NCBI GenBank assembly: GCA_041666505.1
Contig: JBAYGU010000001.1
Coordinates: 477 to 64,476, forward strand
Direction: 5' to 3'
Origin: Candidatus Buchananbacteria bacterium
GTDB taxonomy: Bacteria > Patescibacteriota > Patescibacteriia > 2-01-FULL-39-33
DNA length: 64,000 bases
In this document: in pieces, positions 4,754 to 30,004 of the stretch
Position numbering within the stretch: position 1 is the stretch's first letter
Layout of the letters: the number at the start of each line of letters is the position of its first letter
Program-made: the position numbers and the translations under genes
Notes under the pieces: generated by a model
The model's database searches: none
What the model saw: the letters and a program-made list of their open reading frames with translations, nothing else
What the model was told of the DNA's origin: nothing

Positions 4754-4796
4754 AATCCTCTCGTCTGCCAGGCGGCTGATCAAGAGGATTTTTTTA
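4754..4796 (+). terminator. Rho-independent terminator (AATCCTCT...AGAGGATT + T-run)
   Basis: 8-bp perfect stem followed by TTTTTTT. The right arm overlaps the last codons of the convergent acyltransferase gene. Confidence 0.5.
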
Positions 4797-10837: not shown

Positions 10838-11221
10838 TTATTTATTTTTTAATATTTCTTTGACCTTCTGTGCCAGGGTTGCCGGCGTGTAATCGGATTT
10901 TATGAGGTAGCCGTTGACGCCTAATTTCTGCGCCTTTTCCTGATCCTTTTTCTGCGTCAAATTGCTCCAGATATAGACCTTGATTTTCTTCAAATCTTTA
11001 TCCTTCCTTATCTTAACAAATAATTCAAAACCGTCAATCTCCGGCATCATGACATCCAATAAAACCAGATCCGGCGTTTCTTGCTTCAAGACATCAATGG
11101 CCTTGGCGCTATCATTGATAACCACAGTCTCAATGCCGTCCATAACCAGCCGCATACTGTAAATTTCAGCCAAATCTTTTTCGTCCTCGATCAAGGCGAT
11201 TTTACATTTATTTTCAGACAT
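10838..11221 (-). CDS. Single-domain response regulator (CheY-like receiver)
   Basis: Receiver-domain pattern with phospho-acceptor context LLDVMMPEIDG. Confidence 0.75.
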   Translation of the reverse strand: MSENKCKIALIEDEKDLAEIYSMRLVMDGIETVVINDSAKAIDVLKQETPDLVLLDVMMPEIDGFELFVKIRKDKDLKKIKVYIWSNLTQKKDQEKAQKLGVNGYLIKSDYTPATLAQKVKEILKNK

Positions 11222-14102: not shown

Positions 14103-15833
14103 ATGTCCAAAAACAACGAGGCTTTAGACAAAATCCGCCACTCGACTTCGCACATACTGGCTTACGCCGTGCGTGAGCTTTTCGGCGAGGAAGTAAAATT
14201 TGCCATCGGCCCGACGATCGATGACGGCTTTTATTACGATTTTGATTTAAATGATCAAACTTTCACGCCGGAAGACCTGAAGAAAATCGAGAAAAAGATG
14301 GAAGAAATTATCAAGAAGAAACTGCCGTTCGAAAAATCAGAGCTATCGATCGCCGATGCGGAAAAGAAAATGTCCGGCCAACCGTATAAGCTGGAACTGA
14401 CCAAAGACTTAGCGGCCGCTGGAGAATCAACAGTCAGTTTTTACACTGTCGGAGATTTTACCGATCTCTGCCGCGGCCCTCATGTCGAAACCACCAAGGA
14501 GCTCGGCGCTTTAAAATTAATGAAAATCGCCGGCGCTTATTGGAAAGGCAACGAAAAGAATAAGATGCTGCAAAGGATCTACGGCACGGCCTTCGAAACA
14601 AAAGATCAATTAGCCGAATATCTTAAAATCTTGGAAGAAGCGGAAAAACGCGATCACAGAAAATTAGGCAAGGAGTTAGGTTTGATTTCCTTCCACGATG
14701 AAGGCCCCGGCTTTCCTTTCTTTAAACCGAAGGGCATGGTTATTTGGAATGAGCTTTTGAACTACTGGCGCGAAATGCATGAAGCGGCAGGCTATGATGA
14801 GATCAAGACGCCGATAATGCTCTCCCAGCACCTCTGGGAGACTTCCGGCCATTGGACCAATTATCGCGAGAACATGTATGAGACAATCATCGACGAAACC
14901 AAATTCGCCATCAAGCCGATGAATTGTCCGGGCGGATTCCTGATGTACAAGGAAGACATACATTCCTATCGCGAACTGCCGCTGAGATGGGGCGAGATCG
15001 GCTTAGTGCATCGCCATGAACTCTCCGGCGTCTTGTCCGGGCTGTTCCGCGTCCGCGCTTTCCATCAGGACGATGCGCACATCTTCATGCGGCCCGACCA
15101 GATCAAAGACGAGATTTTGGGCGTCTTGAATCTAGTTGATAAGATGTACGCCACCTTCGGCCTGACATATACTCTGGAACTTTCCACTAAGCCGGAAAAA
15201 GCCATCGGCTCCGATGAGGCTTGGGAAACGGCTACCGCCGGTTTGACGGAAGCGTTAAACAGCACTGGCAAGGAATACGAAATCAATGAGGGCGACGGCG
15301 CTTTCTACGGTCCGAAAATCGACATCAAGATCAAAGACGCCATCGGCCGGACTTGGCAATGCGGCACCATCCAGCTCGATATGAATATGCCTGACCGCTT
15401 CGATCTGACTTACACCGATTCCGACGGACAGGAAAAGCGTCCGGTCATGATCCATCGCGTCATTTACGGCTCGATGGAAAGGTTCTTCGGCGTGCTCATC
15501 GAGCACTTTGCCGGCGCTTTCCCGCTCTGGCTCTCTCCGGTGCAGGCGATGATCATTCCGGTCTCGGAAAAATTCAATGATTACGGCGATAAAGTATTTG
15601 CTGATATGAAGGCCGCCGGCATCCGCGTCGAAATCGATAAATCCGATGAATCGCTGGGCAAGCGCATCAGGAACGCGGAGAAGCAAAAGACTCCCTACAT
15701 ATTAGTCGTGGGCGAAAAGGAAGTCGAAGCGAAAACGATCGCCGTCCGCAAGCGCAGCGAAGGCGATCTCGGTAGCAAGGATACAAATGAATTCATCGAA
15801 GAAATAAAAAATGAAATTGCGGATAAGAAATAG
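14103..15833 (+). CDS. thrS: Threonyl-tRNA synthetase (lacks N-terminal TGS domain)
   Basis: HSTSHILA editing-domain motif and the class II core RDHRKLGKELGL..FHDEGPGFPFF. Start is taken at ATG 14103 (MSKNNE...) rather than the track's upstream TTG start at 14034. Confidence 0.9.
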   Translation: MSKNNEALDKIRHSTSHILAYAVRELFGEEVKFAIGPTIDDGFYYDFDLNDQTFTPEDLKKIEKKMEEIIKKKLPFEKSELSIADAEKKMSGQPYKLELTKDLAAAGESTVSFYTVGDFTDLCRGPHVETTKELGALKLMKIAGAYWKGNEKNKMLQRIYGTAFETKDQLAEYLKILEEAEKRDHRKLGKELGLISFHDEGPGFPFFKPKGMVIWNELLNYWREMHEAAGYDEIKTPIMLSQHLWETSGHWTNYRENMYETIIDETKFAIKPMNCPGGFLMYKEDIHSYRELPLRWGEIGLVHRHELSGVLSGLFRVRAFHQDDAHIFMRPDQIKDEILGVLNLVDKMYATFGLTYTLELSTKPEKAIGSDEAWETATAGLTEALNSTGKEYEINEGDGAFYGPKIDIKIKDAIGRTWQCGTIQLDMNMPDRFDLTYTDSDGQEKRPVMIHRVIYGSMERFFGVLIEHFAGAFPLWLSPVQAMIIPVSEKFNDYGDKVFADMKAAGIRVEIDKSDESLGKRIRNAEKQKTPYILVVGEKEVEAKTIAVRKRSEGDLGSKDTNEFIEEIKNEIADKK

Positions 15834-15905
15834 CATAAAAAAAATCACCTTGGATTATACCAAGGTGATTTTAATTGCGAGCAATCTTTCTATCTTCCAA
15901 GCCGC

Positions 15906-16340
15906 TCATATGCGATCAATAAACAGCGCGGCTTTTTCCAAAAGCTTCTTGATGTCTTCATGCTTGGCTGATTTGATCGCTTCCGGCAAGCTCATCCAAG
16001 ATCCGCTCAAGCCTTCGGCCTGCCTTTCGCTTGTTTCTGCAAAATCATTCTCTAGCAGCTTGGCGAGATAATAATAGATGACTTTGAAGGCTTTTTCCCC
16101 GTCCAATTCGAATTCGAATTCGATCTTGCCGAGCAATCCGCCATCGACCAATTCGATATCCTTATATCCCGTCTCTTCCGTTATTTCTCGCAAAGCGGCC
16201 TATTCCACGCTCTCGCCTTCTTCGACGTGGCCTTTCGGCAGGAGCCATTCGTCGCGCTCCTTCTTATAAATCATATAGACTTTCTTCTGCCGCGGATCAT
16301 ATAATACTCCTCCGGCCGTAACATGTGTTTTCATATTCAT
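15906..16340 (-). pseudogene. Nudix hydrolase interrupted by an in-frame TAG inside the Nudix box
   Basis: ATG 16340 overlaps the upstream gene stop (ATGA). Translation reads ...GHVEEGESVE-TAG(16200-16202)-AALREITEETGY, a perfect GX5EX7REUXEEXGU box except for the stop at a position usually E or Q. Confidence 0.5.
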
Positions 16341-17176
16341 ATATTATTCCTGATAGCAGCTGTTATGGCTTTTGCTTCTCCTTGCGCATAATAGCAAGGT
16401 AAAATTTTAGTTAATCTGCCGATCAAGACATTACGTTTTCTAGCGAGAAGAATATTATCCAACGGAGGCAACGGCTCGATATTTGAAAAAACCCGTCTTG
16501 ATGTGCCCCTAATCTTCCTGTTCATCTCTTCGAACAGATGCCAGTCGAATTTCTCACTCGTCCATCTATCCCAACTTAGTTCATTGGGGACGGAAGTGAC
16601 AAAAGGGTAAACAAACATTGCTATCGGCAATTCCATCTTTTTGCGCAAAGCTAACTTATCATAAACATTCTTTTTACCCTTATTAAAATAAGCGCTGCCA
16701 ACTCCCCCGACGACCATTGAATGCTTCAAGTCAATGACGACTTTTTCGTCAGCAAACCAAATACAATCCGCTTGTTCGCTGAAATACTTAGCTAAAGCAG
16801 TCTTGCCCATACCGCTGGCGCCGCCCCAAAAAATAATCGCCCTTCCTCCGACTTCGACTGCCGCGCCATGCATACAATAGTAGCCTCTGCTTTGTCTAGC
16901 ACGTTCCAATAAATATTCCGCCAGCGATAAGACATCATTGACATCAACTGACTTATTTCGATATTCAGCCCGAGGATATTTTAACATTATTCGACTCGCT
17001 CCTCTTTCTAAATCCAATATCACATCTGTTTTATTTCCCGATTGATCGATAATTACCTCAGGAATATAACGATATAAAAAATCAGACTTAATCAGTTTTT
17101 CAATATCTTCTGGATTATTGCTCCTCACCAATACCGATGCGCCGCATGAGCTAATTCTTAGAAAATGTCTTTTCAT
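16337..17176 (-). CDS. HPr kinase C-terminal-domain-like P-loop protein
   Basis: HGAAVEVGGRAIIFWGGASGMGKTALAKYF matches the HprK core (hG..v...G.GvLi.G.SG.GKS..AL). Confidence 0.5.
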   Translation of the reverse strand: MKRHFLRISSCGASVLVRSNNPEDIEKLIKSDFLYRYIPEVIIDQSGNKTDVILDLERGASRIMLKYPRAEYRNKSVDVNDVLSLAEYLLERARQSRGYYCMHGAAVEVGGRAIIFWGGASGMGKTALAKYFSEQADCIWFADEKVVIDLKHSMVVGGVGSAYFNKGKKNVYDKLALRKKMELPIAMFVYPFVTSVPNELSWDRWTSEKFDWHLFEEMNRKIRGTSRRVFSNIEPLPPLDNILLARKRNVLIGRLTKILPCYYAQGEAKAITAAIRNNI

Positions 17177-18269
17177 AAATTTTTTCCACTTGTTTGATTC
17201 TTATTTGCCAGCTCCATTTGCCCGCAGCCGCTATTCTGGCATTTCTGCCAAGACTGTCAGCTAAAACAGAGTCAGCCAACAATCTGTTCATTGCTTCGGC
17301 TAATGCGATGGCATTTCGGGGAGCGACCAATAATCCGTTACCGCCATTTTTTAAATATTCCGACATGCTGCAAGCAGTAGTGGTTATGACTGGCCGACCG
17401 CAAGCTCCAGCCTCCAGCATAGTAGTTAATATTCCCTCACGGTCATATGAGGGCAATACTACCATTAAGGCTGAATTATAAAGCGAGGGCAAATCCTCAT
17501 CTTTAACGTAACCGAGAAAATGAACATTTTGGGTCAATTTTTTTTCCTTGGCCAACTTACGCAAATTGCCCTCTTCTGGCCCACTACCAGCTATGGCAAC
17601 CCTTATCGCCTTATTTCTTAACTTGGCCAATGCCTCGATCAAATAATTGATTCCCTTGGTTTCAATAAGCCTTCCAACATAAAGCGCGTCATATTCGATA
17701 TCCGTCTTCATCGGGATAAAATGATCAGCATCAATTCCATTAACGGCCACGGAAATTGTTCTTATCGGCGCCATATCCAGCCATTTTTGCTTTATCAATT
17801 CTGAAACGGAAATAAATGCTGAAGGAATCGTTGCGCACAGATCATGCATGTAATTGCTTTGCAGCGGATATCCATGAAGATGCAGAACCGACTTCTGGCC
17901 GAAAGGCACCGCGATAGAATCTAAATAATTATGGACGGCTATTAAATCAAAATGCTGACGTAAAAAATAGCAATAAGCTAATCTGCCGACATGTAAGCTC
18001 TCATAATCCCACCGTATCCATCTCTGACCAGGTAGTTCGCCATAAATCCACTCAAATTCTTCCGGCAAATCAATATAAGCTACCTTAACTTGAGGATTTT
18101 CCTTAAGAAATTTCAAAAAATATCCGCTGGATTTTATATATTTTGCCCGGACAGTCACCAGCGTCACTTGATGACCTGCCAATGAAAGGAATTTTGCATG
18201 CTGCAAAGGAACGACTTCTCCGCCTCCGACATAATAGCTGGCTCTCGGCTGATATATGGCAATTTTCAT
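17151..18269 (-). CDS. Glycosyltransferase family 4 (GT-B, group 1)
   Basis: C-terminal GT1 signature ...PSYDREGILTTMLEAGACGRPVITT. Confidence 0.75.
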   Translation of the reverse strand: MKIAIYQPRASYYVGGGEVVPLQHAKFLSLAGHQVTLVTVRAKYIKSSGYFLKFLKENPQVKVAYIDLPEEFEWIYGELPGQRWIRWDYESLHVGRLAYCYFLRQHFDLIAVHNYLDSIAVPFGQKSVLHLHGYPLQSNYMHDLCATIPSAFISVSELIKQKWLDMAPIRTISVAVNGIDADHFIPMKTDIEYDALYVGRLIETKGINYLIEALAKLRNKAIRVAIAGSGPEEGNLRKLAKEKKLTQNVHFLGYVKDEDLPSLYNSALMVVLPSYDREGILTTMLEAGACGRPVITTTACSMSEYLKNGGNGLLVAPRNAIALAEAMNRLLADSVLADSLGRNARIAAAGKWSWQIRIKQVEKIYEKTFSKN

Positions 18270-18769
18270 AGTCGATTCCTTTCAAAAAATCTTATGAATG
18301 ATTCAATCTGCGCCTGGCCGGTAACCGATGATTTCATCCATTCGATATATTCCGGCAATTCCGCAGGAGAAACGAAATTACGTTCCGACGTTTCAAACTC
18401 AGCTCTGAATTCTCCGATATCAGATAATCTGCAAAAAAATCGCAATTGGAAATATTCCCGGCCTTCGATCGAATCATTGTTCGGATCATTGACTTCGACA
18501 TAGCCTATAAGCTTAAAATCTTTTATGGAGCAATCAGCCTCTTCCATAATCTCTCTTTTCAGCGACTCCTCCAATGTCTCTCCTGATTCCGGATGTCCTC
18601 CCGGCAATCCCCATCCGTGTTTATTCTTTATGATTAAAACCTTATCCTCGTTATCCAGACAAAAAGCGCTAACTTGGGAAATATTTTTTCCGACAGGAAT
18701 ATTTTCTGCTTCTTGCCAAGTGAGCGTAAGATCTCTGCCTGCAAATGTCGTTTTTTCGCTGATTAGCAT
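18266..18769 (-). CDS. Nudix hydrolase (intact)
   Basis: Nudix box GGHPESGETLEESLKREIMEEAD. Confidence 0.75.
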   Translation of the reverse strand: MLISEKTTFAGRDLTLTWQEAENIPVGKNISQVSAFCLDNEDKVLIIKNKHGWGLPGGHPESGETLEESLKREIMEEADCSIKDFKLIGYVEVNDPNNDSIEGREYFQLRFFCRLSDIGEFRAEFETSERNFVSPAELPEYIEWMKSSVTGQAQIESFIRFFERNRL

Positions 18770-18782
18770 AAATAATATTTTA

Positions 18783-19367
18783 TTAATTTTCGTTGAATAT
18801 TTCCCAAAGCTCCGTCGGCAGATTGCCTTTCTTCTTTAATCGATCGAATTTATCTCCCAATATCATCCTTAAATCACTTAATGCCTCATCTGCGCTGTCT
18901 GCTGTATGGATGACATTCTTCTGCGTCAGAACGACTGATAATTCGTCCTGCCGCGGATGAGCGCCATTCTGCCACAGCTTTAGATCCTCATCGGATACTT
19001 TTGAATCCCGCTGTAATTTCTGCCTGATAACACCGTCACCCGTTTCTTTTTTTTTCAGACTGGACAATACCCGTTGGGCTTCCAAGCCGTCGCCTCCGAC
19101 CAGCAAAACAATCACCTCATGACTAGACAGATATTTTCTCATTGCCGGATAAAAATGCTGATTGATTGAATCAGCATAAATATAATCGACCGCTTGCGGC
19201 GATAATTTTACTTTATCTTCATAAACGATCATTAAGCCGTTTTCTTTTAAAATAGATTCTATCGCCGGCAAATCATCTATATATTCCGGCTTTATGAAAG
19301 CAAATGCTATTTCCTTTTTGGGCATTAAGTCTTTGATTTCTTGCCCTGGCGGATATTCTCTTATCAT
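18783..19367 (-). CDS. Nucleoside-diphosphate-kinase-like protein (divergent, N-terminal extension)
   Basis: AFAFIKPEY (compare NDK FIMIKPDG) and NVIHTADS (compare NDK NIIHGSDS, catalytic His). Confidence 0.5.
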   Translation of the reverse strand: MIREYPPGQEIKDLMPKKEIAFAFIKPEYIDDLPAIESILKENGLMIVYEDKVKLSPQAVDYIYADSINQHFYPAMRKYLSSHEVIVLLVGGDGLEAQRVLSSLKKKETGDGVIRQKLQRDSKVSDEDLKLWQNGAHPRQDELSVVLTQKNVIHTADSADEALSDLRMILGDKFDRLKKKGNLPTELWEIFNEN

Positions 19368-21103
19368 ATATTCCTCTCGATTATTTCTAATAAACCGGCT
19401 TCGCCCGGTTTTTGAGCGACGTATTGGCTACGCCTCCTGTAAAAGGATTTCGCATTCATGATAGCGCAAAATTTTATTTTGCGCCAATTGCCATCGACAG
19501 TCTCGTTATCACTGATGAAAATCGCCTGCTTGCCGCTAAAATAGACGTTAATCAATCGGTCTAGAGCCGAGATCTTTGATACGCCAGGATTGTCCACTGT
19601 TATCTTTGCCGGCTTGGATAATAAATTTATCTTATGATCAGGCAATTCCCTCTGAAGCATGGCATATATATTCTTGGCCAATCCATAATTGGGCTGCCCA
19701 TTACATCTTGCATAAATACTGGCAGAATATTTCCTTTTTGCGCTGACAAATATCAAATATTTTTCTTTTTGAATATTAATAATATTCTTGTCATAACCGG
19801 TTACTACTCGATACCCCGCGCCTTTATAATTATCTTTCAATAAGCTTGAAATAGTCCGCCTCAATCGCCTATCAGAATGCGGAGCTTCTTTTTTTAAGCC
19901 ATGGGGCGTTAACTTGAAATATGAACCACCCTCGCAGATAATAGGGCCGTTTAATCCAAAATCATAATAAACGCTTTTCGCCTCAGCCCAGGGACGATTA
20001 GTATTCAATCCGAATATAACGCCGTCTTTCGTAAGATTTCTAATCTTATTTTTTAATTTTACAAAAGAAACGGCATCGTCGGATACCAATGTGCCGTCGA
20101 TATCGAAAAAAACCAGCGGATATGCTTTTTTCTTGGTGCTAACGGCCGCCTTCCATTGAGTAGGCGGCTCATAAATACCTATATTAAGCAGCAGGAATTC
20201 TAATTTAAGGCACATCCAGAAAAACCCCTTCATTGCCAAGTAAATCAGCCAGATTAAACCGTCGCCAAAACCTGATTTTTGCCATTTCTTCCAATCAGTG
20301 CGTCGGTTCAGATGCGGCCAAAGATAATTATATTCGGGGAACCAACACTTCATTTTTTCCATTTCGATATTGCGGCGGCGATAGACATTAAGCCAATCAT
20401 AGAATGAACTGATCGGCCAGGAATAGCATTTTGCCTTGGCAACCTGCCTTATGGAATTCAAGCCGAATTTGTCAATGAAGTAACTCGACATGAACACATC
20501 GTCTGCAGACAGCAATATGCCGTTGCTGCAATATTTCAGCATCATTTTACTCCGACGACAATTTTTTGCCCGCCTGGACACCTCATAATCAGTGGGAATA
20601 TGCCAATGACGAGTTGCAAATAACCGCCCATGAAAATACTGGCGCGGCGAAAGCATTGCCTGCGAATCATACAATCTGCCGATTTTTTCGGCTAAATTCA
20701 TATTAATTTTATCCTTAGCCAAGGATACTGTTTTAGCATAGGTAACGGCCAACTGAGAATTGCCTTTTAATGCGTCAACGAGCAACTTTATGGAATCTTC
20801 GGCAATTAGACCATCAGCATCAGGAAACACGAAAATTTCCGCCGGAAATTTATTGACAATCATGCGCTGGGCATTGACTAGGCCGGGACGGCTCCTGATT
20901 AGTTCACAGGCGATTTTAGGGTGGTCTTTTTTGAAACGCCTGAATTCCTTTTCAGTGTCATCCGTACAGCCGTTAACGCAAACGACGATTATATATTTTT
21001 TTATTCGACAAAAAATAACAGCCTTGCTGATCGATTCCAGGGCTGAGTAAATATTGGTTGCTTCATTTTTTGCCGGAATTCCAACGGTTAACGAATACTT
21101 CAT
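19364..21103 (-). CDS. Bifunctional GT2 glycosyltransferase / HAD-IIB-like phosphatase fusion
   Basis: N-terminal GT-A fold (VGIPAKNE...DADG) and C-terminal HAD motifs (VFFDIDGTLV, GLNTNRP, ISDNETVDG). Confidence 0.65.
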   Translation of the reverse strand: MKYSLTVGIPAKNEATNIYSALESISKAVIFCRIKKYIIVVCVNGCTDDTEKEFRRFKKDHPKIACELIRSRPGLVNAQRMIVNKFPAEIFVFPDADGLIAEDSIKLLVDALKGNSQLAVTYAKTVSLAKDKINMNLAEKIGRLYDSQAMLSPRQYFHGRLFATRHWHIPTDYEVSRRAKNCRRSKMMLKYCSNGILLSADDVFMSSYFIDKFGLNSIRQVAKAKCYSWPISSFYDWLNVYRRRNIEMEKMKCWFPEYNYLWPHLNRRTDWKKWQKSGFGDGLIWLIYLAMKGFFWMCLKLEFLLLNIGIYEPPTQWKAAVSTKKKAYPLVFFDIDGTLVSDDAVSFVKLKNKIRNLTKDGVIFGLNTNRPWAEAKSVYYDFGLNGPIICEGGSYFKLTPHGLKKEAPHSDRRLRRTISSLLKDNYKGAGYRVVTGYDKNIINIQKEKYLIFVSAKRKYSASIYARCNGQPNYGLAKNIYAMLQRELPDHKINLLSKPAKITVDNPGVSKISALDRLINVYFSGKQAIFISDNETVDGNWRKIKFCAIMNAKSFYRRRSQYVAQKPGEAGLLEIIERNI

Positions 21104-21123
21104 ACGACGGTGTAAAGCATCTT

Positions 21124-22752
21124 TTAACTGATCTTTTTTGCTTGCTTCCTATCCGCCATCGGCAATGAAAAACAGAACTTGCTGCCTTTGTTTTTACCGG
21201 GCGATTCCACCCAGATGCGGCCGCCCATATTCTCTACCAGGACGCGCGCGTAATATAAGCCCAAGCCAGTCCCCTCGGTATTGACCTTGGCCGAATCCTT
21301 GCCGCGGGTGAATTTGTTGAATAATCGTTTGATGTCGTCAGCATCCATACCCATGCCGGTATCTTGAGAAGTAAAAACGACAGACGTGCCCTCTTGATGC
21401 AGGCCGACCATGATCTCGCCTTGCTTGGTGTATTTGATGGCATTATCGATTATATTGGAAACGATGTCTTTTATCTTCTGCGCGTCCGCCGCGACTTTCG
21501 GCACCTTTTCTTTACTCATGAAGGCCAGCTTCAATTTGCGCGCCTTGGCTTTCTCTTGGAAATCATTGACCATCGACTTGGCGACTTCCGTCAGATCCAC
21601 TGGCTCGATAGTGAACTCAATCCTGCCCGCCTCGATACGCGATATATTAAGTAGGCTTTCCACTAAATTAATTAATCGTTCGGTCGAGACGAATATCTTG
21701 TCGATGCTTTCCTTGACTGGTTTAGTCATCTTGCCAAAACTGCCTTCCAAAAGCATCGAAGAATAGCCTTTGATGATCGTGAGCGGCGTCCTCAGCTGAT
21801 GCGAGGAGATCGACAGGAATTCCGATTTGGATTCATCTAATCGCTTCAATTCCTTGTTGGCGCTCGCCAAATCCTTCGTGACTTTATTCAATTTTTTATT
21901 AAGCGCTTCCATTTCCTCGCGGCGATGGACTTCGTGAAGTACTGAGCGAACAAGCAACACGGCAAAGAATAAGGTAATAATAAATATGACCACCCTGAAA
22001 TAAACAGAAATTTGCGATGTTTGAAATATTTGTAAAAAAGTTATAACTATTAAAAATACAGAGAATAATTCCGTTGCAATTACTTTAATATTCATCAAGT
22101 GGTGCTTGATTATCGCATAAGCCACTGCTGCGACGTAAAAAGTTACCAATATATTAGTAATGGGCGGAATGGGTATTTTATACCACAAAAAATAATTAGT
22201 AGACCCGCCGATAAATCCGATTGTCATTCCGACTAATACATAAATAATTTGAATTTTTATGATTCCCTCTGATTGAATATATTTCTTATAAAGTAGAGAA
22301 CAAGAATAGACTACGTAAAAAAACCAAATAATCAAAAAAGGGGCGAATGCTGGACCGGCCATTGGCCAAAACTTAAAAGTTAAAATCGGTTCGACGCCAA
22401 TGACAAATAGGGGGGTAAAATCAAGTATTAAAAAGATGAGGGAAATGATGAACGTCAGAATCAAAAATTTTCTTCTTTTTGGAAGCAAACCGACAAAAGA
22501 ATAAATAAAATATAAATAAGTAAATGGAATAAAAATAGCTGGAGCCATCAATAGACGGCACCAAAATAAGGCTGAGATCGGATCACTGGCCAATTGCCAA
22601 TAATAATATCCGATGCTCCAAAAAGCCACAGTAAAAGCAAAAAGTGAAAAGGAGGCATTAACTTTGTCTTCTTTATTGCTAAAAAAAACAAAAGTACCCA
22701 GAAATATACTGCTAAAAAAATTAATTATTGCAACGATGGCGTAAATATTCAT
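21124..22752 (-). CDS. Membrane sensor histidine kinase
   Basis: About 7 N-terminal TM helices, an H-box (SHQLRTPL) and HATPase_c G-boxes (GTGLGL). Confidence 0.8.
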   Translation of the reverse strand: MNIYAIVAIINFFSSIFLGTFVFFSNKEDKVNASFSLFAFTVAFWSIGYYYWQLASDPISALFWCRLLMAPAIFIPFTYLYFIYSFVGLLPKRRKFLILTFIISLIFLILDFTPLFVIGVEPILTFKFWPMAGPAFAPFLIIWFFYVVYSCSLLYKKYIQSEGIIKIQIIYVLVGMTIGFIGGSTNYFLWYKIPIPPITNILVTFYVAAVAYAIIKHHLMNIKVIATELFSVFLIVITFLQIFQTSQISVYFRVVIFIITLFFAVLLVRSVLHEVHRREEMEALNKKLNKVTKDLASANKELKRLDESKSEFLSISSHQLRTPLTIIKGYSSMLLEGSFGKMTKPVKESIDKIFVSTERLINLVESLLNISRIEAGRIEFTIEPVDLTEVAKSMVNDFQEKAKARKLKLAFMSKEKVPKVAADAQKIKDIVSNIIDNAIKYTKQGEIMVGLHQEGTSVVFTSQDTGMGMDADDIKRLFNKFTRGKDSAKVNTEGTGLGLYYARVLVENMGGRIWVESPGKNKGSKFCFSLPMADRKQAKKIS

Positions 22753-22823
22753 AAAAACAAATTAAAAACCCGAGTCAATGCTTTTATTATAGCATTTTCT
22801 CGGGTTGATTCAAAATGTTCGAC

Positions 22824-23783
22824 TTATTTCTCGGCAATAAGAATGCCATGAATGCGCAACGGTTCATAGATTATTCGATAATCCTTAAATCCTGCTTTTT
22901 CGGCTATTTCCACTAGATCGCTAGGATCGCGATAGATCATGGGCCAATTGATGACCCAATGAAGGAAGTGTTGTTCCGGATTCGGAGCGATATTGCATGT
23001 CAGATATACACCATCGGGCTCTAGTGATTCCCGGATCTTTTCCGACAATCGTATCGCCTTTCCTTGTTCGATGTAATCAAGTAGCCCCAACATCTCAATG
23101 ATCTGCGGTTTGAAGTCGACCGCTACCATGGCCACTGCCGCAACACTAATCTGTTTTATTTCGATTTGACTACATACACCATAGCACTTAGCCAAATTTC
23201 TGGCATATTCCAGCGCATCCTTATCGATATCGACAAGAATCGCCTTAACGATTACACCCCTGTGTTTAAACTCGGCAATAATTTCAATCACTGCTTGAGC
23301 CGAACCGCAAGCCAATGAAATCAATCTGACTTCACCATGACCACTAAATCTCAATATTGCCCGTCGCACCTCTTGCCGCACCAACTTGTAACGATTACGA
23401 ACAGCCTGAGCGTTCATCATGCCAATCCAGAAATTATCTATAATCTTTCTCCAGCCGAAACTGAAATTGTGATTGTAGATAATGTCCAAGGCTTTCCACG
23501 AAGCCGCACCATCCTTGATCTGACGATTACCAGGCCCCAAGCCATCAAACCACATAGTGTTGGTCTGTGGCCTATCGATTCCAAATTTCTTATACACCAA
23601 TTTCTTAGCGATCACGTACAGTGTGAGCAACCAAGAAATTGGCAGGGTGAGTATGTAAAGCCAGCGGCGATGCTCATAGGAATCCAGCTTAATCGGTTGA
23701 ACAAATGAGGCTTCAATATTACCCGACTCTGACATTTCCGGAGCCGTAGCTATTTCCACCCCAGAGAGAGTATATTTATTCAT
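22824..23783 (-). CDS. Class I SAM-dependent methyltransferase with N-terminal TM helix
   Basis: Motif I-like LISLACGSAQAV plus an acidic loop VDIDKDAL. Confidence 0.55.
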   Translation of the reverse strand: MNKYTLSGVEIATAPEMSESGNIEASFVQPIKLDSYEHRRWLYILTLPISWLLTLYVIAKKLVYKKFGIDRPQTNTMWFDGLGPGNRQIKDGAASWKALDIIYNHNFSFGWRKIIDNFWIGMMNAQAVRNRYKLVRQEVRRAILRFSGHGEVRLISLACGSAQAVIEIIAEFKHRGVIVKAILVDIDKDALEYARNLAKCYGVCSQIEIKQISVAAVAMVAVDFKPQIIEMLGLLDYIEQGKAIRLSEKIRESLEPDGVYLTCNIAPNPEQHFLHWVINWPMIYRDPSDLVEIAEKAGFKDYRIIYEPLRIHGILIAEK

Positions 23784-23805
23784 TTCTATTTTCCCTTCCT
23801 TTCTT

Positions 23806-24990
23806 CTAGAACTTCACAGTTCCGCTAATTGCACCTGTCCAGACGTCAGCAGAAATTTCCCGGCCGTCAGCCTTATTGCTGCCCCAGCCGCGGGAAAGTC
23901 CCACTGTCAGGTCCCACGACTTCGCGATTTGATAATTGAGCCGACCGGCGACAAACACTCCGTCCGTATCCGGCGTCATGAAGTCCGCCGTCTGGTCAGG
24001 AACTGCTGCGGACATATAGCCCGTGCCGCCGCCGATCGTCAGGCGATCATTCACTTTGTAACTAGCGCCGACTCGGGCCGCCCAATTATCCGCCCAACCG
24101 GTCTTGACCGGCTTGGTGAACGTGAGCTTGTCGAATTTGATATCGACCGACTCCAACGAACTCTTGGAGTAGCCGTACCAAGTCCAATCAGCCACTAAGA
24201 GCAATCGATCAGTCGCCTTCCAAGCTCCGGAAACTTCGAGTTCGTCCGGAAATTGGAAATCAGCTTTGATCTCATCCCGCAAATGGAACGGACTCAGGAT
24301 TTCCGTGCGGCCATTCAAACGCGCCTTAATGCTCGAAGTATAATTCATTCCGAACGCCCAATTCTCATTCGGCTGATAAAACACGCCAACGGCCGCGCCG
24401 ATTCCGGCTCCGATCGCTTTCGTGTCCGTCTCGATCGGCAGGTTATGCCGATTGATGTCGAATGGCCCGTGCCACGTCAGCATAGTGTCGGCAATTATCA
24501 AGCCGAGTCCGATTGACCACTGATCGTTTAATCTCTGAGTAACGTACGGTTCAATGTACGTCCCGGATATAAGAGTCCGAGAATCTATCCTGCCGAAGCT
24601 TTTTTCGAAGCTCGCACCCATGCCGAATTCCGTCCGGATCTTCAAGCCGGTGACGGTATCGCCATCGACCCTTTGAGCCCAGCACAGATACGGCAATGTA
24701 TGCGCCACGTTCTTCGACTCAATAGTTCGACCAAATCGATCCGTAATACGGAATTTCGGCACCATGGTTTCGAAACCGAATTCCAATTGGCTGCCATCAA
24801 TCTGGATCATACTGCCCAGATTCTCCGGCAGCCATGGTCCGTCCGGATTCGAGCCATTGCCGACACCTGTCGGCCCAGTTACAGCCAAGCGATCCAATCC
24901 TCCGCCATAGGCCAAAGGATTAAACATTACGGCCATAATGGCCAAAAGTACCAACAAAATTAACTTTACTGAATTGTAATGAACTTGCAT
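23806..24990 (-). CDS. FadL/OmpP1/TodX-like outer-membrane beta-barrel protein
   Basis: Signal peptide, amphipathic beta-strand periodicity and a C-terminal ...ISGTVKF ending in Phe. GC of about 56% far exceeds neighbouring genes. Confidence 0.55.
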   Translation of the reverse strand: MQVHYNSVKLILLVLLAIMAVMFNPLAYGGGLDRLAVTGPTGVGNGSNPDGPWLPENLGSMIQIDGSQLEFGFETMVPKFRITDRFGRTIESKNVAHTLPYLCWAQRVDGDTVTGLKIRTEFGMGASFEKSFGRIDSRTLISGTYIEPYVTQRLNDQWSIGLGLIIADTMLTWHGPFDINRHNLPIETDTKAIGAGIGAAVGVFYQPNENWAFGMNYTSSIKARLNGRTEILSPFHLRDEIKADFQFPDELEVSGAWKATDRLLLVADWTWYGYSKSSLESVDIKFDKLTFTKPVKTGWADNWAARVGASYKVNDRLTIGGGTGYMSAAVPDQTADFMTPDTDGVFVAGRLNYQIAKSWDLTVGLSRGWGSNKADGREISADVWTGAISGTVKF

Positions 24991-25137
24991 TTCTTTTCTC
25001 CTATTTCTCTGCTATTTTAGCAGTTTTTGACAGCTACCAACAGTTATCCACAATATTCTGACTAACATAAAATTATAGCAAATAATAACACTTTTGTCAA
25101 TGAATGATTAAATATTTACTAATTTTACGCAAAAAAA

Positions 25138-25164
25138 CCGCCGAATCGCTTCGGCGGCCATGAA
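25138..25164 (-). terminator. Rho-independent terminator (CCGCCGAA-tcgc-TTCGGCGG + T-run)
   Basis: Perfect 8-bp stem. An identical copy lies at 30073-30099. Confidence 0.6.
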
Positions 25165-25166
25165 TG

Positions 25167-25862
25167 TTATTTCTCGCTTTCCAGTCGAGCTTTTAATAAA
25201 AATATCGTATCGGTTCGCAATTTCGCTCGAGCCCAATCTTTTTGAGAAGCCGTCAACATCTCTCCCAGGCCATCGAGAATATGGCGATTGTCCATCTTTT
25301 CCAACATCTTAATGCATTTAGCTACAACTTCCTCAAAAGTCAGCTTAGCACGATTTTCCACTAATTTCTTATTGATCGGCCACATGTTTTTGGCAAAAAA
25401 ATAAACGTCATAGACATCGCGACTCGTCTTGCCTATCCTCTCATACATCGCCATGAGTTTATTGGCGAACATATCTTCCTTAACCATAACCGGCATAGAG
25501 ATGCCCAGCAACGTTTTCACTTCGTATTTCGATCCGAAATTCCGTCGATTGACTTCGATTTTTATATTCTGAGACTTCAAGTCATGCGCGATAATAACGA
25601 TCAGATTAAATCTCTTAATCTTGGAATCAATGATCTTACCGTAGCCTGCGGCTATCTTTTGGATTTTTTCAAACACTTCCTTTTCCTTATCAACAACCAA
25701 AAGATCAAGATCGATATCGACGGAGTTGCGATCCAGGCCGTAAAACATCAAAGCCGCCGTTCCGCCTTTAAAACCCAAATACGGGGACAGCGAAGTGTCA
25801 GAAAAAATATCTTTCAATATCTGCAATAGAATATTCTTATGTTTGGGATAGTCTAATGTCAT
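25167..25862 (-). CDS. abiEii: AbiEii/AbiGii-family nucleotidyltransferase toxin (type IV TA)
   Basis: Hallmark LGFKGGTAALMFYGLDRNSVDIDLDL. Confidence 0.7.
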   Translation of the reverse strand: MTLDYPKHKNILLQILKDIFSDTSLSPYLGFKGGTAALMFYGLDRNSVDIDLDLLVVDKEKEVFEKIQKIAAGYGKIIDSKIKRFNLIVIIAHDLKSQNIKIEVNRRNFGSKYEVKTLLGISMPVMVKEDMFANKLMAMYERIGKTSRDVYDVYFFAKNMWPINKKLVENRAKLTFEEVVAKCIKMLEKMDNRHILDGLGEMLTASQKDWARAKLRTDTIFLLKARLESEK

Positions 25863-26476
25863 ACGGTTTGAATGTTATCCAGTTTATCGTTTTTATAATA
25901 ATTGAAATATTTTTCAACTTTCTTAGCCATTCTTTGATTGCGGTAAATCGGCAAAATTTCAAAAACTTTTTTCCAGTCCAAAACGCTCAGATTGTCGAAA
26001 TGATAATCCTTGCTGATATATATCCGATCCAAAAATGCCCGCTCTTTTGTCGCGACAGCCACGCCATTTACATGCTCGATCCCCGCCGTATTGCTCAGAA
26101 CAAAATCCTTCATCCTGATAAACGATATTTTTTGCCCGTCCGCCTCAATCTCCCTCGTAACATAGGAAGCAACAAAAATATTTCCGTAATACTGGAAATT
26201 CACTCCGGTCCGAGTCAAGACTGTTTCAAAACTGACATAAGAGGGAGTATAGATCCGCGTAGCCAATTCAAAACGATCATAATTCTTATCCTTGGCATAA
26301 ATGCCGCGATGGACCCTGATTAATTTTCCCCTTTTTACATAATTGCTCAATCTAACCCTGATTTTAGCCTCTCCTATTTCACCCCACAGCAAAGAAATGT
26401 CTTTTGTGGAAAAGACAGTTTTTGGCGATCTGAGCAACATATCGATATATTGGCCTTTTGTGAGTTTATTAACCAT
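25859..26476 (-). CDS. abiEi: AbiEi-family antitoxin/transcriptional regulator
   Basis: RGKLIRVHRGIYA signature of the AbiEi N-terminal domain. It overlaps the toxin by 4 nt. Start is taken at MVNKL (26476) rather than the longer track ORF ending at 26545. Confidence 0.65.
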   Translation of the reverse strand: MVNKLTKGQYIDMLLRSPKTVFSTKDISLLWGEIGEAKIRVRLSNYVKRGKLIRVHRGIYAKDKNYDRFELATRIYTPSYVSFETVLTRTGVNFQYYGNIFVASYVTREIEADGQKISFIRMKDFVLSNTAGIEHVNGVAVATKERAFLDRIYISKDYHFDNLSVLDWKKVFEILPIYRNQRMAKKVEKYFNYYKNDKLDNIQTV

Positions 26477-26517
26477 ATACTTACTAGATGTTAGTTTAAA
26501 ACTTACTAACAGTACAA

Positions 26518-26545
26518 TTATAGCACATATATAAAATATATGCAA
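26518..26545 (-). promoter_or_regulatory. Putative sigma70-type promoter for abiEi (TTGCAT-16/17-TATAAT)
   Basis: On the minus strand, TTGCAT lies at 26545-26540 and TATAAT at 26523-26518, about 45 nt upstream of ATG 26476. The recurring TTTTTGTCTAAAATTAGCTAA motif lies immediately upstream. Confidence 0.35.
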
Positions 26546-28082: not shown

Positions 28083-29372
28083 CTACTTCAACAGATCATC
28101 CAGCTCGCAAGACAGCAAGGCGGATTTATTTAGCAAGATCTGCTCATTGGGATTCAGATTATCCGCAGTCATCCGAATAAGCTTGGTGGTGATGCTGTCG
28201 CCTAACATAATCCTGCCGGTTTTCTTGAAATATTTCTCTGTCATTTGAAAAAAGTGGGTCGCATACTGTTTGAGAACTTCCTGCGGAGCGAGCCGACTAC
28301 TTATACCGTTATTCGTAAATTCTGTAATCTTCATTAAATTATCATCTATCATATTATTCATTTTACCATCTGTCGCAATAATCCAATCTTCATCAATCGC
28401 ATATTTAACAAGAACAATTTTCCCATCATCTGTTTCATACAAAAATTTAAACAAAAAAATATCCTTAAACATATCCTCAAAAATTACCAACTTTTGAAGA
28501 ATTTTAATATCTCTAATTTTATATTCATCCAAAAGACGCAGATAGCTCTCTCGCCAATTCTTTAACCAATTGGCAATGAAAGCCTGATCCAAGAAAAGCG
28601 GGGTCAAATCATGTTTGAGATTGGCATCCGTCTTCGGACTGTTTAAAATTTTTATCGTAACCTTGTCGAATAATTCTTTCGGATTCTTAATATCGATACC
28701 TTTGGCGATGAGATAATCGAAATCAGGCACGATTTTTTTGCCCATATACCACAGCAGGTCATAAATATCGCGCCCTTTTTCTTCATAAATTTCTTTCCCT
28801 GTCCCGCGAGAGCCGCGCAGAAAAATTGCGGCTAATTTGCTTGCCATGAGCGCACCCATATTATATGTCCAGATGACAAATGACAACTGTCCGCGATTTA
28901 TCGGCTGGCGGTCAATTACGGTTTTAGAAGCGGCAAAATGATTCAAATCAATTTTTACGTGGATCTGATCCGAAGGCCAGCCAAGGCTAAGTTCCTTGCC
29001 GACATGGAACTTCAAGATCAATCCTCTGCCGGCAGTTATTTTTAACGTTAAGAAACCGGCTCCGGCTCCATATGTATTTGCAAAATAATCTTCAATCTCC
29101 CTTTTCAATTCGCCCAAAAATTCCTCTGTCACCTCATGAGAAACCTCAAAATCCAAATCAACCGACATACGATCCAGGCCATGGATTATGCGCAGCGCGG
29201 AACCGCCATACATGACCCAATCGCCGTATTCCTGATGATGATAAATAAAATTCAGGACATAAAACTGCAGCTCTTCTTCAAGGGCGTTAAGGCGCGTCTC
29301 GGCATCGATACCGCCATAAGCTGACAGGCTCTCGATTTTCCTTTTCAAAATTGCGATTATCTGTTCGCTCAT
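28083..29372 (-). CDS. AbiEii-family nucleotidyltransferase (second, 429 aa)
   Basis: VMYGGSALRIIHGLDRMSVDLDFEV. Confidence 0.65.
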   Translation of the reverse strand: MSEQIIAILKRKIESLSAYGGIDAETRLNALEEELQFYVLNFIYHHQEYGDWVMYGGSALRIIHGLDRMSVDLDFEVSHEVTEEFLGELKREIEDYFANTYGAGAGFLTLKITAGRGLILKFHVGKELSLGWPSDQIHVKIDLNHFAASKTVIDRQPINRGQLSFVIWTYNMGALMASKLAAIFLRGSRGTGKEIYEEKGRDIYDLLWYMGKKIVPDFDYLIAKGIDIKNPKELFDKVTIKILNSPKTDANLKHDLTPLFLDQAFIANWLKNWRESYLRLLDEYKIRDIKILQKLVIFEDMFKDIFLFKFLYETDDGKIVLVKYAIDEDWIIATDGKMNNMIDDNLMKITEFTNNGISSRLAPQEVLKQYATHFFQMTEKYFKKTGRIMLGDSITTKLIRMTADNLNPNEQILLNKSALLSCELDDLLK

Positions 29373-30004
29373 ATGAGTATATTTTTAACAAATGAATAAA
29401 ATTTTTCCTGCTCTTCGATATCCATCTCGTCAAAATCAATGCGCAATTCCTCGATCATTGGATCAATATCTTCCAGCTTAATGCCGCGGAACTGGCGAGT
29501 TCTGAAATACAGAAGATCAAATAATGCTTTCGCCGGAGAAGCGATAAAAAAATCAAACCCCCCTGCATCAGATCCAGGCCTTCCCGTTACTAAGTGAAAA
29601 TCAGAAAAGAGCTCTTTTTTAATCGACTGATAGGCGAAATTGCCCGCCTTGGCCTGATAATCCTTAGTTACTTTAATGGTTACTGATGTGATAGAATTGA
29701 TCGATTCGGTCGCTAAGCCATAATACTGCAAGGCTGCCCAAGAACTGATATAAGACGGCACACGGATAATATTAGCAAGATAAAATGAATATGAACCGTC
29801 ATGCTTATACTTATCATAAAAAGCAGAGGTTACATATAAACCGTTTTTTAGCTGAAAAATCTCATTATATTTCAAAAATCGGCTGATATATGTGTCAACC
29901 GTGGAATCCTTAAGCCCCAACTGCTTACCGAGCTGATATACGGCGTTTTTATTGAAGTGGGGTAATGTTTTTAACTGCTCAAGCAGGTTTTTCTTGCTTT
30001 TCAT
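29369..30004 (-). CDS. AbiEi-family antitoxin (second)
   Basis: LKNGLYVT and an AbiEi-like C-terminal domain. It overlaps the downstream NTase gene by 4 nt. Confidence 0.6.
   Translation of the reverse strand: MKSKKNLLEQLKTLPHFNKNAVYQLGKQLGLKDSTVDTYISRFLKYNEIFQLKNGLYVTSAFYDKYKHDGSYSFYLANIIRVPSYISSWAALQYYGLATESINSITSVTIKVTKDYQAKAGNFAYQSIKKELFSDFHLVTGRPGSDAGGFDFFIASPAKALFDLLYFRTRQFRGIKLEDIDPMIEELRIDFDEMDIEEQEKFYSFVKNILI

Follow-up and report, generated by a model that had tools for sequence, protein, structure and literature searches.

When examining the window, that is, the whole 64,000-nucleotide stretch of Candidatus Buchananbacteria DNA analysed here, we found seven co-directional open reading frames (ORFs), all on the minus strand, that make up a tight block between positions 15906 and 22752 (Table 1). 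The earlier note described an overlap of 4 nt at each junction, which holds for three of the six, namely, GT2-HAD/NDK-like, Nudix A/GT4 and HprK-like/Nudix B (ATGA); the GT4 and HprK-like genes overlap by 26 nt, an overlap seen again in relatives (also 26 nt in the related locus L002), whereas gaps of 20 nt and 13 nt separate the sensor histidine kinase (HK) from GT2-HAD and the NDK-like gene from Nudix A, respectively. The tight packing itself stands. The operon is closed by an intrinsic terminator that sits between it and the convergent ThrRS gene, and is preceded by a promoter-like site that is a consensus match only, the total of such sites not exceeding the shuffled expectation. An Rfam search of positions 15500-25400 for a riboswitch or leader RNA that could give a clue to the ligand yielded nothing credible. 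The FadL-like and Methyltransf_20 genes upstream were kept out of the conserved cassette described below; the methyltransferase, the only one of the two used as a query, had no matches in any locus. AbiE toxin-antitoxin modules lie near the operon.

Table 1. Positions of the operon genes, their domains and the flanking signals in the window
Feature	Positions	Strand	Remarks
Sensor histidine kinase (HK)	21124..22752	-	first gene of the block; 7TM HisKA_7TM + HisKA + HATPase_c
GT2-HAD fusion gene	19364..21103	-	
GT2 domain of the fusion, aa 1-325	20129..21103	-	GT-A, inverting type
HAD-IIB (Cof-type) phosphatase domain of the fusion, aa 326-579	19364..20128	-	
NDK-like protein	18783..19367	-	cassette-specific
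Nudix hydrolase A	18266..18769	-	intact Nudix box
GT4 glycosyltransferase	17151..18269	-	GT-B, retaining type
HprK-like kinase, 279 aa	16337..17176	-	PEPCK/HprK fold; signature gene of the cassette
Nudix hydrolase B	15906..16340	-	in-frame TAG at 16200-16202
Intrinsic terminator	15841..15872	-	13-pair stem, then T-run; closes the operon after Nudix B
Promoter-like site	22786..22813	-	TTGAAT-16-TATAAT, extended TG; upstream of HK

Profile and fold searches confirmed all six domain assignments made earlier (GT2-HAD, NDK-like, Nudix, GT4, HprK-fold P-loop protein and a TAG-broken Nudix), each ORF falling within the superfamily then named. The GT4 glycosyltransferase matches Pfam Glycos_transf_1 (2.8e-42, 144.6 bits) and contains the GRL..KG motif, with G199-R200, K205 and E278-x7-E286 invariant. 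The profile of this family aligns with the BshA structures over its full length (residues 14-373; 1e-33 for 2jjm and 3mbo, 1e-30 for 5d00) but only partially with MshA and SPS; in a single-sequence search, the C-terminal half was closest to sucrose-phosphate synthase (6kih). BshA is the best match among solved structures only: the scores against the NCBIfam BshA and MshA models are 72 bits (cut-off 274) and 82 bits (cut-off 462), and the best NCBIfam matches are exopolysaccharide-type enzymes.

The GT2 domain scores 39.6 bits against its Pfam family (cut-off 23.3) and has the GT-A fold, with D48, the conserved D95xD97 and D201-D202, YRRRN at the QxxRW position and amphipathic, interface-type C-terminal helices. 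No transmembrane (TM) segments are predicted in the cassette proteins of the window, although the orthologous GT2 helix in L002 is just above the TM threshold. The HAD domain possesses motifs I-IV and the type IIB cap (DxDxT, T, K and D-x-E conserved); its similarity to Cof-type sugar phosphatases is generic, and it weakly matches the MPGP and SPP families. The glycosyltransferase-phosphatase fusion, which had been taken as the architecture of compatible-solute glycoside synthesis, is present here but is a minority state, found in 4 of the 37 GT2 homologues and otherwise represented by adjacent genes. The compatible-solute assignment is not supported: the closest folds are those of membrane-associated synthases (HAS, BcsA) and PcManGT rather than MPGS, GpgS or MGS, and the cassette glycosyltransferase falls outside the MPGS/GpgS/MGS (GT55/78/81) and TPS/SPS-type families.

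The signature protein of the cassette harbors H103, a P-loop (GASGMGKT, 119-126) and D143-E144, invariant in 35 sequences, and thus the HprK/P arrangement of a GxSGxGK[ST] P-loop with an upstream histidine and a downstream acidic pair, within the HprK/P catalytic-domain fold. The HprK signature noticed earlier is, accordingly, genuine; the protein, however, lies outside the HPr kinase/phosphorylase family proper and appears to resemble a miniature PEPCK along its entire length. It reaches only 11.7 bits against Pfam Hpr_kinase_C (cut-off 33.3), and the NCBIfam HprK_rel_A and HprK_rel_B matches are weak (E=0.007 for the window protein, with 15.4 bits for HprK_rel_A, and 5e-5 for a fusion protein in L031; 15-22 bits against a cut-off of 200), whereas the N-terminal domain aligns with PEPCK in a fold search (228 aa aligned). 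The fold search was needed because the kinase profile, searched against the PDB by sequence, gave only marginal PEPCK P-loop matches. Some homologues carry Pfam PF27840 'ScmC', and distant relatives adjoin CTP synthase. No called gene on record has exactly the sequence of the window kinase, and close homologues number about 35-37 in 5.8 billion proteins, as do those of the type-A GT2 and of the NDK-like protein.

The NDK-like protein matches Pfam NDK (1.3e-9, 38.5 bits against a gathering score of 27) and retains the catalytic histidine, NVIHTAD aligning with the NxxHGSD of E. coli Ndk and human NME1. It departs, however, from canonical NDK: an insertion of about 33 aa precedes NxxH, the canonical nucleotide-phosphate ligands (R88/T94 region, Kpn loop) are not retained, the R88/T94 region being replaced, and the NCBIfam equivalog score is 37.5 bits against 155. 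With 36 homologues, the longer of which lie on contigs size-matched to those of the kinase and GT2 homologues, this subfamily is similar in size to the likewise small families of the kinase and the GT2. Nudix A (Pfam NUDIX, 1.8e-16) contains a Nudix box of the form GX5EX7REUXEEXGU (GGHPESGETLEESLKREIMEEAD) whose core, G57-G58, E64, R72-E73 and E76-E77, is conserved across 25 orthologues, and is found in 41 of 58 related loci. In Nudix B, the TAG lies inside the Nudix box, at the fourth x of E-x7-RE; with this codon read as Q, the protein matches Pfam NUDIX at 2.1e-19. Recoding is ruled out, given that TAG terminates 14 of the 61 long ORFs in the window, including those for ThrRS and GT4; here, too, it is a plain nonsense codon. 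In L030, a relative with 91% identity, a Nudix B gene likewise begins after the kinase, and the disrupted gene of the window is probably a pseudogene or a sequencing or strain variant.

The HK contains HATPase_c (3.9e-27), HisKA (1.1e-16) and HisKA_7TM (1.3e-13). Two-component control of the operon, raised earlier, is only suggested: homologous HKs occur in 8 of the 58 related loci, many of which are short contigs, but the operon lacks a cognate response regulator, the nearest receiver being a stand-alone REC at 10838-11221. The HK recurs without being universal and is an optional sensor, an accessory neighbour of the enzymes.

The gene neighbourhood is conserved in related genomes. The same complement, GT4, HprK-like kinase, Nudix, GT2, HAD and a nucleotide kinase, was detected in about 50 non-redundant loci of Patescibacteria (CPR) and Clostridia, with the gene content and, mostly, the order recurring across different classes. 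The arrangement is far beyond chance. The six enzyme functions always travel together, their catalytic motifs are intact, and GT4 directly precedes the kinase in 38 of 49 cases. Individual components are subject to non-homologous replacement by lineage, namely, type A by type B GT2, HAD-IIB by HAD-IA, and the NDK-like protein by an NMP-kinase-like (dTMP/CMP-kinase-like) one in Clostridia and L031. The HAD-IA of type-B cassettes has a weak best match to pyrimidine nucleotidase (YjjG), and the N-terminal domain of about 240 aa in type-B GT2s has no Pfam or PDB match. The number of Nudix hydrolases per locus ranges from one to four, a methyltransferase is frequently present as well, and the Clostridial cassette is headed by a ManC-like mannose-1-P guanylyltransferase (206 bits). 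Two further fusions, GT2-Nudix in L017 and an MTase-fold (BpsA_C)-kinase in L031, join these functions; L034 carries a polyprenyl synthase and L026 a sulfotransferase. No exporter or transporter is conserved among the related loci. Positions 15906-21103 carry one copy of a biosynthetic cassette that is conserved and has spread horizontally. This cassette is previously undescribed; a literature search for HprK-like, Nudix and glycosyltransferase genes together in CPR and for PF27840, ScmC and SynChlorMet found nothing on it.

As a general reading, the pathway suggested earlier, an uncharacterised one involving an NDP-sugar or a glycoside phosphate, is still the best available. In the version that we favour, with a probability of roughly 0.4, the cassette would use NDP-sugars to make a small glycoside, often a methylated one, in the cytoplasm via a phosphorylated intermediate, with nucleotide recycling built in. 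The donor would be an NDP-sugar; for the Clostridial version at least, GDP-mannose is the probable one. The BshA/MshA-like GT4 would glycosylate a small hydroxylated acceptor (a hydroxy-acid, polyol or sugar phosphate); the kinase would either supply the phosphorylated acceptor or phosphorylate the GT4 product; the GT2 would add a second, beta-linked sugar; the HAD would remove the phosphate; and, in many lineages, methyltransferases would tailor the product. The Nudix and NDK-like or NMPK-like enzymes may salvage the nucleotide moiety or keep it in check (NDP-sugar to NMP and sugar-1-P; NMP/NDP to NTP), which would be of consequence to CPR cells that are auxotrophic for nucleotides. The resulting glycoside would be cytoplasmic and might respond to stress. 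What points this way is the combination of domain identities with conserved content and order despite non-orthologous replacement, the three Rosetta-stone fusions, the full-length alignment of GT4 with BshA, the Cof-type sugar phosphatase match, the Clostridial ManC-like enzyme, the conserved catalytic motifs in proteins devoid of TM segments and of a conserved transporter, the GT4-kinase adjacency, and the small NDK-like family on matching contigs.

The fold and interface helices of the GT2 are more in keeping with an acceptor that is a lipid or a polymer than with a soluble molecule, and so count against a soluble glycoside. Conceivably, the product could be a membrane glycolipid or lipid-linked glycan, with a peripheral GT4 similar to PimA or monoglucosyl-DAG synthase and the GT2 acting on diacylglycerol, phospholipid or polyprenyl phosphate, the Nudix and HAD enzymes stripping CDP-, PP- or P- head groups to yield the lipid acceptor, and the nucleotide kinases recycling NMP/NDP. 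We consider this unlikely, although GT4 also matches PimA, PimB, alpha-monoglucosyl-DAG synthase and GlcNAc-PG synthase, the GT2 helix of L002 just passes the TM threshold, and CMP-kinase-like proteins, CTP synthase and, in L034, polyprenyl synthase are neighbours in relatives. Neither an integral membrane domain nor a flippase is conserved, nor any transporter; a true TM helix in the fused forms would make the HAD extracellular; the GT4 profile covers the soluble, small-molecule enzyme BshA in full but PimA and PimB only in part; and the kinase would have no evident role. The nucleotidase-like HAD-IA and the CTP synthase neighbours also weigh against the glycoside model inasmuch as phosphatase, Nudix and kinase could act on nucleotides. 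In such a nucleotide-centred pathway, a nucleotide or NDP-sugar would itself be the substrate, and the glycosyltransferases would extend either a nucleoside or a sugar linked to a nucleotide. Nudix would split the pyrophosphate, the HAD would take off the phosphate that is left, and an unusual nucleotide would fall to the NDK-like or NMPK-like protein. Such a route could yield a modified nucleoside, a free oligosaccharide or a glycoside derived from a nucleotide. The dedicated NDK paralogue with its altered nucleotide-binding region, its replacement by a dTMP/CMP-kinase-like protein, the multiple Nudix paralogues and the GT2-Nudix fusion are compatible with this scheme, which we nevertheless rate as less probable still: base-modifying enzymes are absent, the cassette does not occur on viral contigs, the window HAD-IIB matches sugar-phosphate phosphatases, the ManC-like enzyme suggests ordinary donor activation and, to our knowledge, nucleotide-linked oligosaccharide pathways are very rare. 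A phage origin or DNA hypermodification was rejected, there being no relatives in viral contigs and only generic PHROG matches.

The nature of the kinase and the exopolysaccharide-type matches of GT4 raise further objections to a small glycoside. The only characterised stand-alone HprK-like kinases, paeninodin-type and LppK, transfer phosphate to serines in peptides, working together with NTP-transferases (PMC13381572). By analogy with these and with HprK/P, the cassette kinase could phosphorylate a serine in a ribosomal peptide or in a protein, which the glycosyltransferases would glycosylate, and the weak HprK_rel_A and HprK_rel_B matches, the 'ScmC' homologues and the sulfotransferase of L026 are in line with such a role. 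However, the window operon and the conserved set are free of a precursor peptide, RRE/PqqD, cyclase, protease and exporter, the N-terminal domain makes the kinase look PEPCK-like over its whole length, unlike HprK/P, and the ManC-like enzyme is a sugar-1-P guanylyltransferase, whereas the NTP-transferases of RiPP clusters are of another class; peptide modification is accordingly quite improbable. That the genes have no common function, being housekeeping genes packed by genome compaction in the gene-dense CPR or an anti-phage defence island next to AbiE modules, is hardly tenable and already contradicted by the conservation data: the same set, including fusions, turns up in Clostridia and in several lineages of Patescibacteria, each time flanked differently, and the three small families (kinase, type-A GT2 and NDK-like) share contigs. 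A defence system was also rejected on the PADLOC results, in which only Nudix gave a match, generic and weak, to the candidate PDC-S07.

Returning to the cytoplasmic glycoside, it is possible, if rather doubtful in its full detail, that the product belongs to an undescribed metabolite class, such as a di-glycoside of a small hydroxy-acid or polyol that bears methyl groups, a transient phosphate or both. CPR bacteria and certain Clostridia of gut and environmental origin would use it as a stress solute or as the precursor of a cofactor. In that case, the 279-aa protein would represent a new family of small-molecule kinases within the PEPCK/HprK fold, the obligate partner of a BshA-like GT4, and the NDK-like protein would be a pathway-dedicated phosphotransferase. 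Patescibacteria have tiny genomes with few recognisable biosynthetic pathways, and the persistence of an intact six-function cassette in several CPR lineages and Clostridia implies that the product is probably important for their lifestyle. Within the PEPCK/HprK fold, the kinase appears to form a new branch whose substrate is probably not a protein, and the cassette offers a pathway-specific NDK paralogue within a biosynthetic cluster that has its own nucleotide-recycling enzymes, a sensible provision for nucleotide auxotrophs. Should the product be an ordinary glycoside or surface sugar, the result would be a useful annotation rather than a conceptual advance.

Several known systems share parts of this design. 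The compatible-solute pairs (MPGS/MPGP, GpgS/GpgP, SPS/SPP and mannosylfructose-P synthase/phosphatase) likewise place a glycosyltransferase beside, or fused to, a HAD-IIB phosphatase, and the Clostridial version of the cassette has a GDP-mannose-forming enzyme, but these pathways lack the second glycosyltransferase, the kinase, the Nudix enzymes and the nucleotide kinase. The cassette GT4 resembles BshA, whose acceptor is the small hydroxy-acid L-malate (PMC5790435), over the entire length, and MshA in part, but is not accompanied by BshB/BshC or MshB/C/D. HprK/P carries its own MurE/F-like N-terminal domain in place of the PEPCK-like beta domain of the cassette kinase, and PEPCK is twice the size of the latter, whose gene is tied to GT4 rather than to HPr/PTS or gluconeogenesis genes; no HPr partner is found in any conserved neighbourhood of the related loci. 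The RiPP tailoring kinases (paeninodin PadeK and LppK) are also stand-alone HprK-fold kinases within biosynthetic clusters, which sometimes include nucleotidyl- and sulfo-transferases; the cassette differs from these in having GT4, GT2, Nudix, HAD and NDK as partners in place of precursor peptide, RRE and maturase. A further parallel, by analogy only, is with WbdD, which caps the polymannose O-antigen by kinase and methyltransferase activities. Although WbdD employs other kinase and methyltransferase families, and the conserved set of the cassette does not include an ABC exporter or lipid carrier, both systems combine GDP-mannose, GT4 enzymes and the action of a kinase and a methyltransferase on one glycan, a combination echoed in the methyltransferase-fold-kinase fusion of L031.

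The genes at issue form a glycosylation gene cluster, with a make-up that is maintained far beyond the window. Our collection from GTDB genomes, metagenomes and assemblies comprised 77 related loci, 58 of them non-redundant, and among the latter, the GT4 glycosyltransferase was present in 49, the HprK/PEPCK-fold kinase in 48 and a Nudix protein in 41; for 38 of 49 kinase genes, the GT4 gene was located directly upstream, the exceptions being mostly contig ends. Three architectures were apparent. Type A, which includes the window and loci labelled Buchananbacteria, Lloydbacteria, Paceibacterota, 'Saccharibacteria' and unclassified Patescibacteria, consists of GT2(A), HAD-IIB, NDK-like, Nudix, GT4 and kinase genes, in some loci with a SAM methyltransferase or the 7TM kinase in front of them. 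Type B (Shapiro-, Collier- and Amesbacteria, WWE3) combines a methyltransferase, a divergent NDK-like protein, HAD-IA, GT4, the kinase, a GT2(B) of ~520 aa and 2-4 Nudix paralogues. Type C, found in Clostridia including human-gut contigs, contains a ManC-type enzyme (mannose-1-phosphate guanylyltransferase, TIGR01479, 206 bits), GT2(B), HAD-IIB, Nudix, GT4, the kinase and a dTMP/CMP-kinase-like protein. No relative of the cassette was located on a viral contig. Because the set of functions is kept even where non-homologous proteins have taken over individual roles, this recurrence, for which the earlier note had suggested looking, is strong evidence for a single pathway.

Gene fusions lead to the same conclusion. 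The GT2-HAD fusion highlighted in that note is indeed present in the window but is a minority state, occurring in 4 of the 37 GT2(A) homologues. One type A cassette that has a separate GT2(A) encodes a GT2-Nudix fusion, and in another locus a BpsA_C domain (aminopropyl-/methyltransferase fold) is fused to the HprK-like kinase and followed by Nudix, GT4, GT2 and thymidylate-kinase-like genes. One cassette variant includes a Sulfotransfer_4 protein. The N-terminal domain of the type B GT2, seen in Microgenomates and Clostridia cassettes, has an invariant S-N-D-Y motif in an alignment of 11 loci and showed no match in Pfam or PDB.

In the window, the cassette belongs to seven same-direction genes in the ORF listing (minus strand, 22752 down to 15906), with a promoter-like site upstream of the histidine kinase gene. 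The block is tight, as previously described, but the 4-nt overlap that had been ascribed to every junction is found at three only; the GT4 and kinase genes overlap by 26 nt, and gaps of 13 and 20 nt separate the genes at the other two. The domain calls that had been made without databases hold, with confirmation by Pfam and NCBIfam for the GT2-HAD, NDK-like, GT4, histidine kinase and both Nudix proteins. The window derives from a MAG of Candidatus Buchananbacteria, and its GT2-HAD and NDK-like proteins show 100% identity to NCBI entries assigned to that group.

Features of the operon, its surroundings and related loci (L-numbers, loci from other genomes or metagenomes; all other positions refer to the window)
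Feature	Position	Strand	Evidence or setting
7TM sensor histidine kinase	21124-22752	-	HisKA_7TM, HisKA, HATPase_c (Pfam/NCBIfam)
GT2-HAD fusion, 579 aa	19364-21103	-	GT2 matched residues 1-120; Hydrolase_3/HAD-IIB 331-532 (Pfam/NCBIfam)
NDK-like protein, 194 aa	18783-19367	-	NDK, 38.5 bits, above cut-off (Pfam)
Nudix A, 167 aa	18266-18769	-	NUDIX (Pfam/NCBIfam)
GT4, 372 aa	17151-18269	-	Glycos_transf_1 (Pfam/NCBIfam)
P-loop kinase, 279 aa	16337-17176	-	HprK-type motif
Nudix B	15906-16340	-	NUDIX; in-frame TAG 16200-16202 within Nudix box
Strong terminator closing the block	15841-15872	-
Acyl_transf_3 membrane acyltransferase and GDSL/SGNH hydrolase	4780-6694	-	Overlapping genes
Response-regulator receiver domain, 127 aa	10838-11221	-	Stand-alone, without output domain; between ArgRS and IleRS
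Putative methyltransferase	22824-23783	-	Methyltransf_20-like; one hydrophobic segment; between FadL-like and histidine kinase genes
FadL/TodX-family outer-membrane beta-barrel	23806-24990	-	Toluene_X 1.2e-30, 106.7 bits; N-terminal signal-like sequence; just upstream of operon
Perfect -35/-10 match	25072-25100		In front of FadL-like gene
Terminator	25136-25159		Precedes the -35/-10 match
AbiEii toxin/AbiEi antitoxin module	25167-26545	-	Upstream of operon
Second AbiEii-domain gene, then 211-aa ORF	28083-30004	-	Upstream of operon; ORF without Pfam match
GT2-Nudix fusion, 466 aa	L017:1934-3334	-	Type A cassette
BpsA_C-kinase fusion	L031:1094-3013	+
Sulfotransfer_4 protein	L026:9438-9977	+	Between Nudix and kinase
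~240-aa N-terminal domain of type B GT2	L004:11995-12720; L024:10887-11642		Also in 9 other loci
Distant kinase-family members	L032:4696-9903; L034:1480-5547		Adjoin HAD and CTP-synthase homologue

The intact Nudix A is accompanied by Nudix B, whose TAG occupies the fourth variable position of E-x7-RE in the Nudix box; GAG or CAG in its place would restore the reading frame, and in a 91%-identical relative the same Nudix gene starts after the kinase. Recoding of TAG was rejected, given that it is an ordinary stop in the window, where it ends 14 of the 61 long ORFs, those of ThrRS and GT4 among them; hence the stop in Nudix B is either a nonsense mutation, making the gene a pseudogene or reflecting a strain polymorphism, or an error of sequencing.

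The two-component control previously suggested finds some resonance in the recurrence of a related histidine kinase in 8 of the 58 loci, but the link is unproven and the operon encodes no response regulator. The stand-alone receiver domain is the only one among the window ORFs scanned with Pfam. Unlike other methyltransferase families, which often accompany the cassette, the Methyltransf_20-like gene is not conserved beside it in other loci. The FadL-like barrel stands out because CPR bacteria are not known to have an outer membrane. Acyltransferase-hydrolase pairs like the one in the window occur in glycan or peptidoglycan O-acetylation systems.

The kinase is, over its whole length, a "mini-PEPCK" with an HprK-type motif, and H103, GASGMGKT and D143-E144 are all conserved in 35 homologues. 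Close relatives are rare (35 matches in 5.8 billion proteins), and a full scan with the kinase HMM yielded 134 clusters at E<1e-30, 274 at E<1e-10 and 692 at E<1e-3. PF27840 "ScmC", a new Pfam entry, is present in some homologues, and a distant family member reaches Hpr_kinase_C at 2.5e-7. Of two distant members, the one in L032 additionally adjoins a radical SAM/SPASM enzyme and the one in L034 a polyprenyl synthase, a context that is different from the cassette and also uncharacterised. The NDK-like protein is a cassette-specific paralogue rather than a housekeeping NDK: within its subfamily (n=36), the longer members are found on contigs that match those of the kinase and GT2(A) homologues in length. 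The equivalents of K12, Y52, R105 and N115 are retained together with the catalytic histidine, whereas the R88/T94 region is lost and a ~33-residue insertion has been gained.

The catalytic motifs of GT2, HAD, Nudix A and GT4 are intact across orthologues. A profile built for the cassette GT4 can be aligned from end to end with the GlcNAc-malate synthase BshA (1e-33 to 1e-30), and partially with sucrose-phosphate synthase, MshA, PimA and PimB; scores against the NCBIfam models of BshA and MshA are well below their cut-offs. The predicted structure of the GT2-HAD fusion (pLDDT 90.9) consists of a GT-A domain, amphipathic helices and a Cof-type HAD domain that matches generic Cof-type sugar-phosphate phosphatases (17-18.7), followed by sucrose phosphatase (16.2) and MpgP (14.3). 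The interpretation in the earlier note is thus supported in part; the analogy that it drew to compatible-solute synthase-phosphatase fusions does not fit the GT2.

Taken together, the cassette enzymes would account for two glycosyl transfers, two phosphorylations (one of ATP type, one of a nucleotide) and two hydrolyses (one of a phosphomonoester, one of a pyrophosphate), to which methylation is often added. The simplest scheme, to which we assign a probability of roughly 0.4, is the cytoplasmic synthesis of a small glycoside via a phosphorylated intermediate. The kinase would make a phosphorylated acceptor or phosphorylate the GT4 product, GT4 and GT2 would attach two sugars with an NDP-sugar as donor (probably GDP-mannose in cassettes that include ManC), HAD would remove the phosphate, and the nucleotide would be salvaged by Nudix together with the NDK-like or NMPK-like enzymes.

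That the product is a glycolipid or is linked to a lipid, a reading favoured by the GT2 fold, appears unlikely; hydropathy analysis predicted no transmembrane segment in any cassette protein of the window, and no transporter or flippase is conserved among the related loci. It is quite unlikely that the substrate of the pathway is itself a nucleotide, a possibility in line with the dedicated nucleotide enzymes, the nucleotidase-like HAD-IA and the CTP synthase beside distant kinase relatives. Characterised HprK-like RiPP kinases act on peptides or proteins (PMC13381572), so a target of this kind was considered as well, but is highly improbable because precursor and RiPP machinery are absent. 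In the available literature, we found no description of the combination that would carry out the favoured glycoside synthesis, above all the GT4-kinase pair; each of the cassette proteins, taken individually, belongs to a known superfamily.
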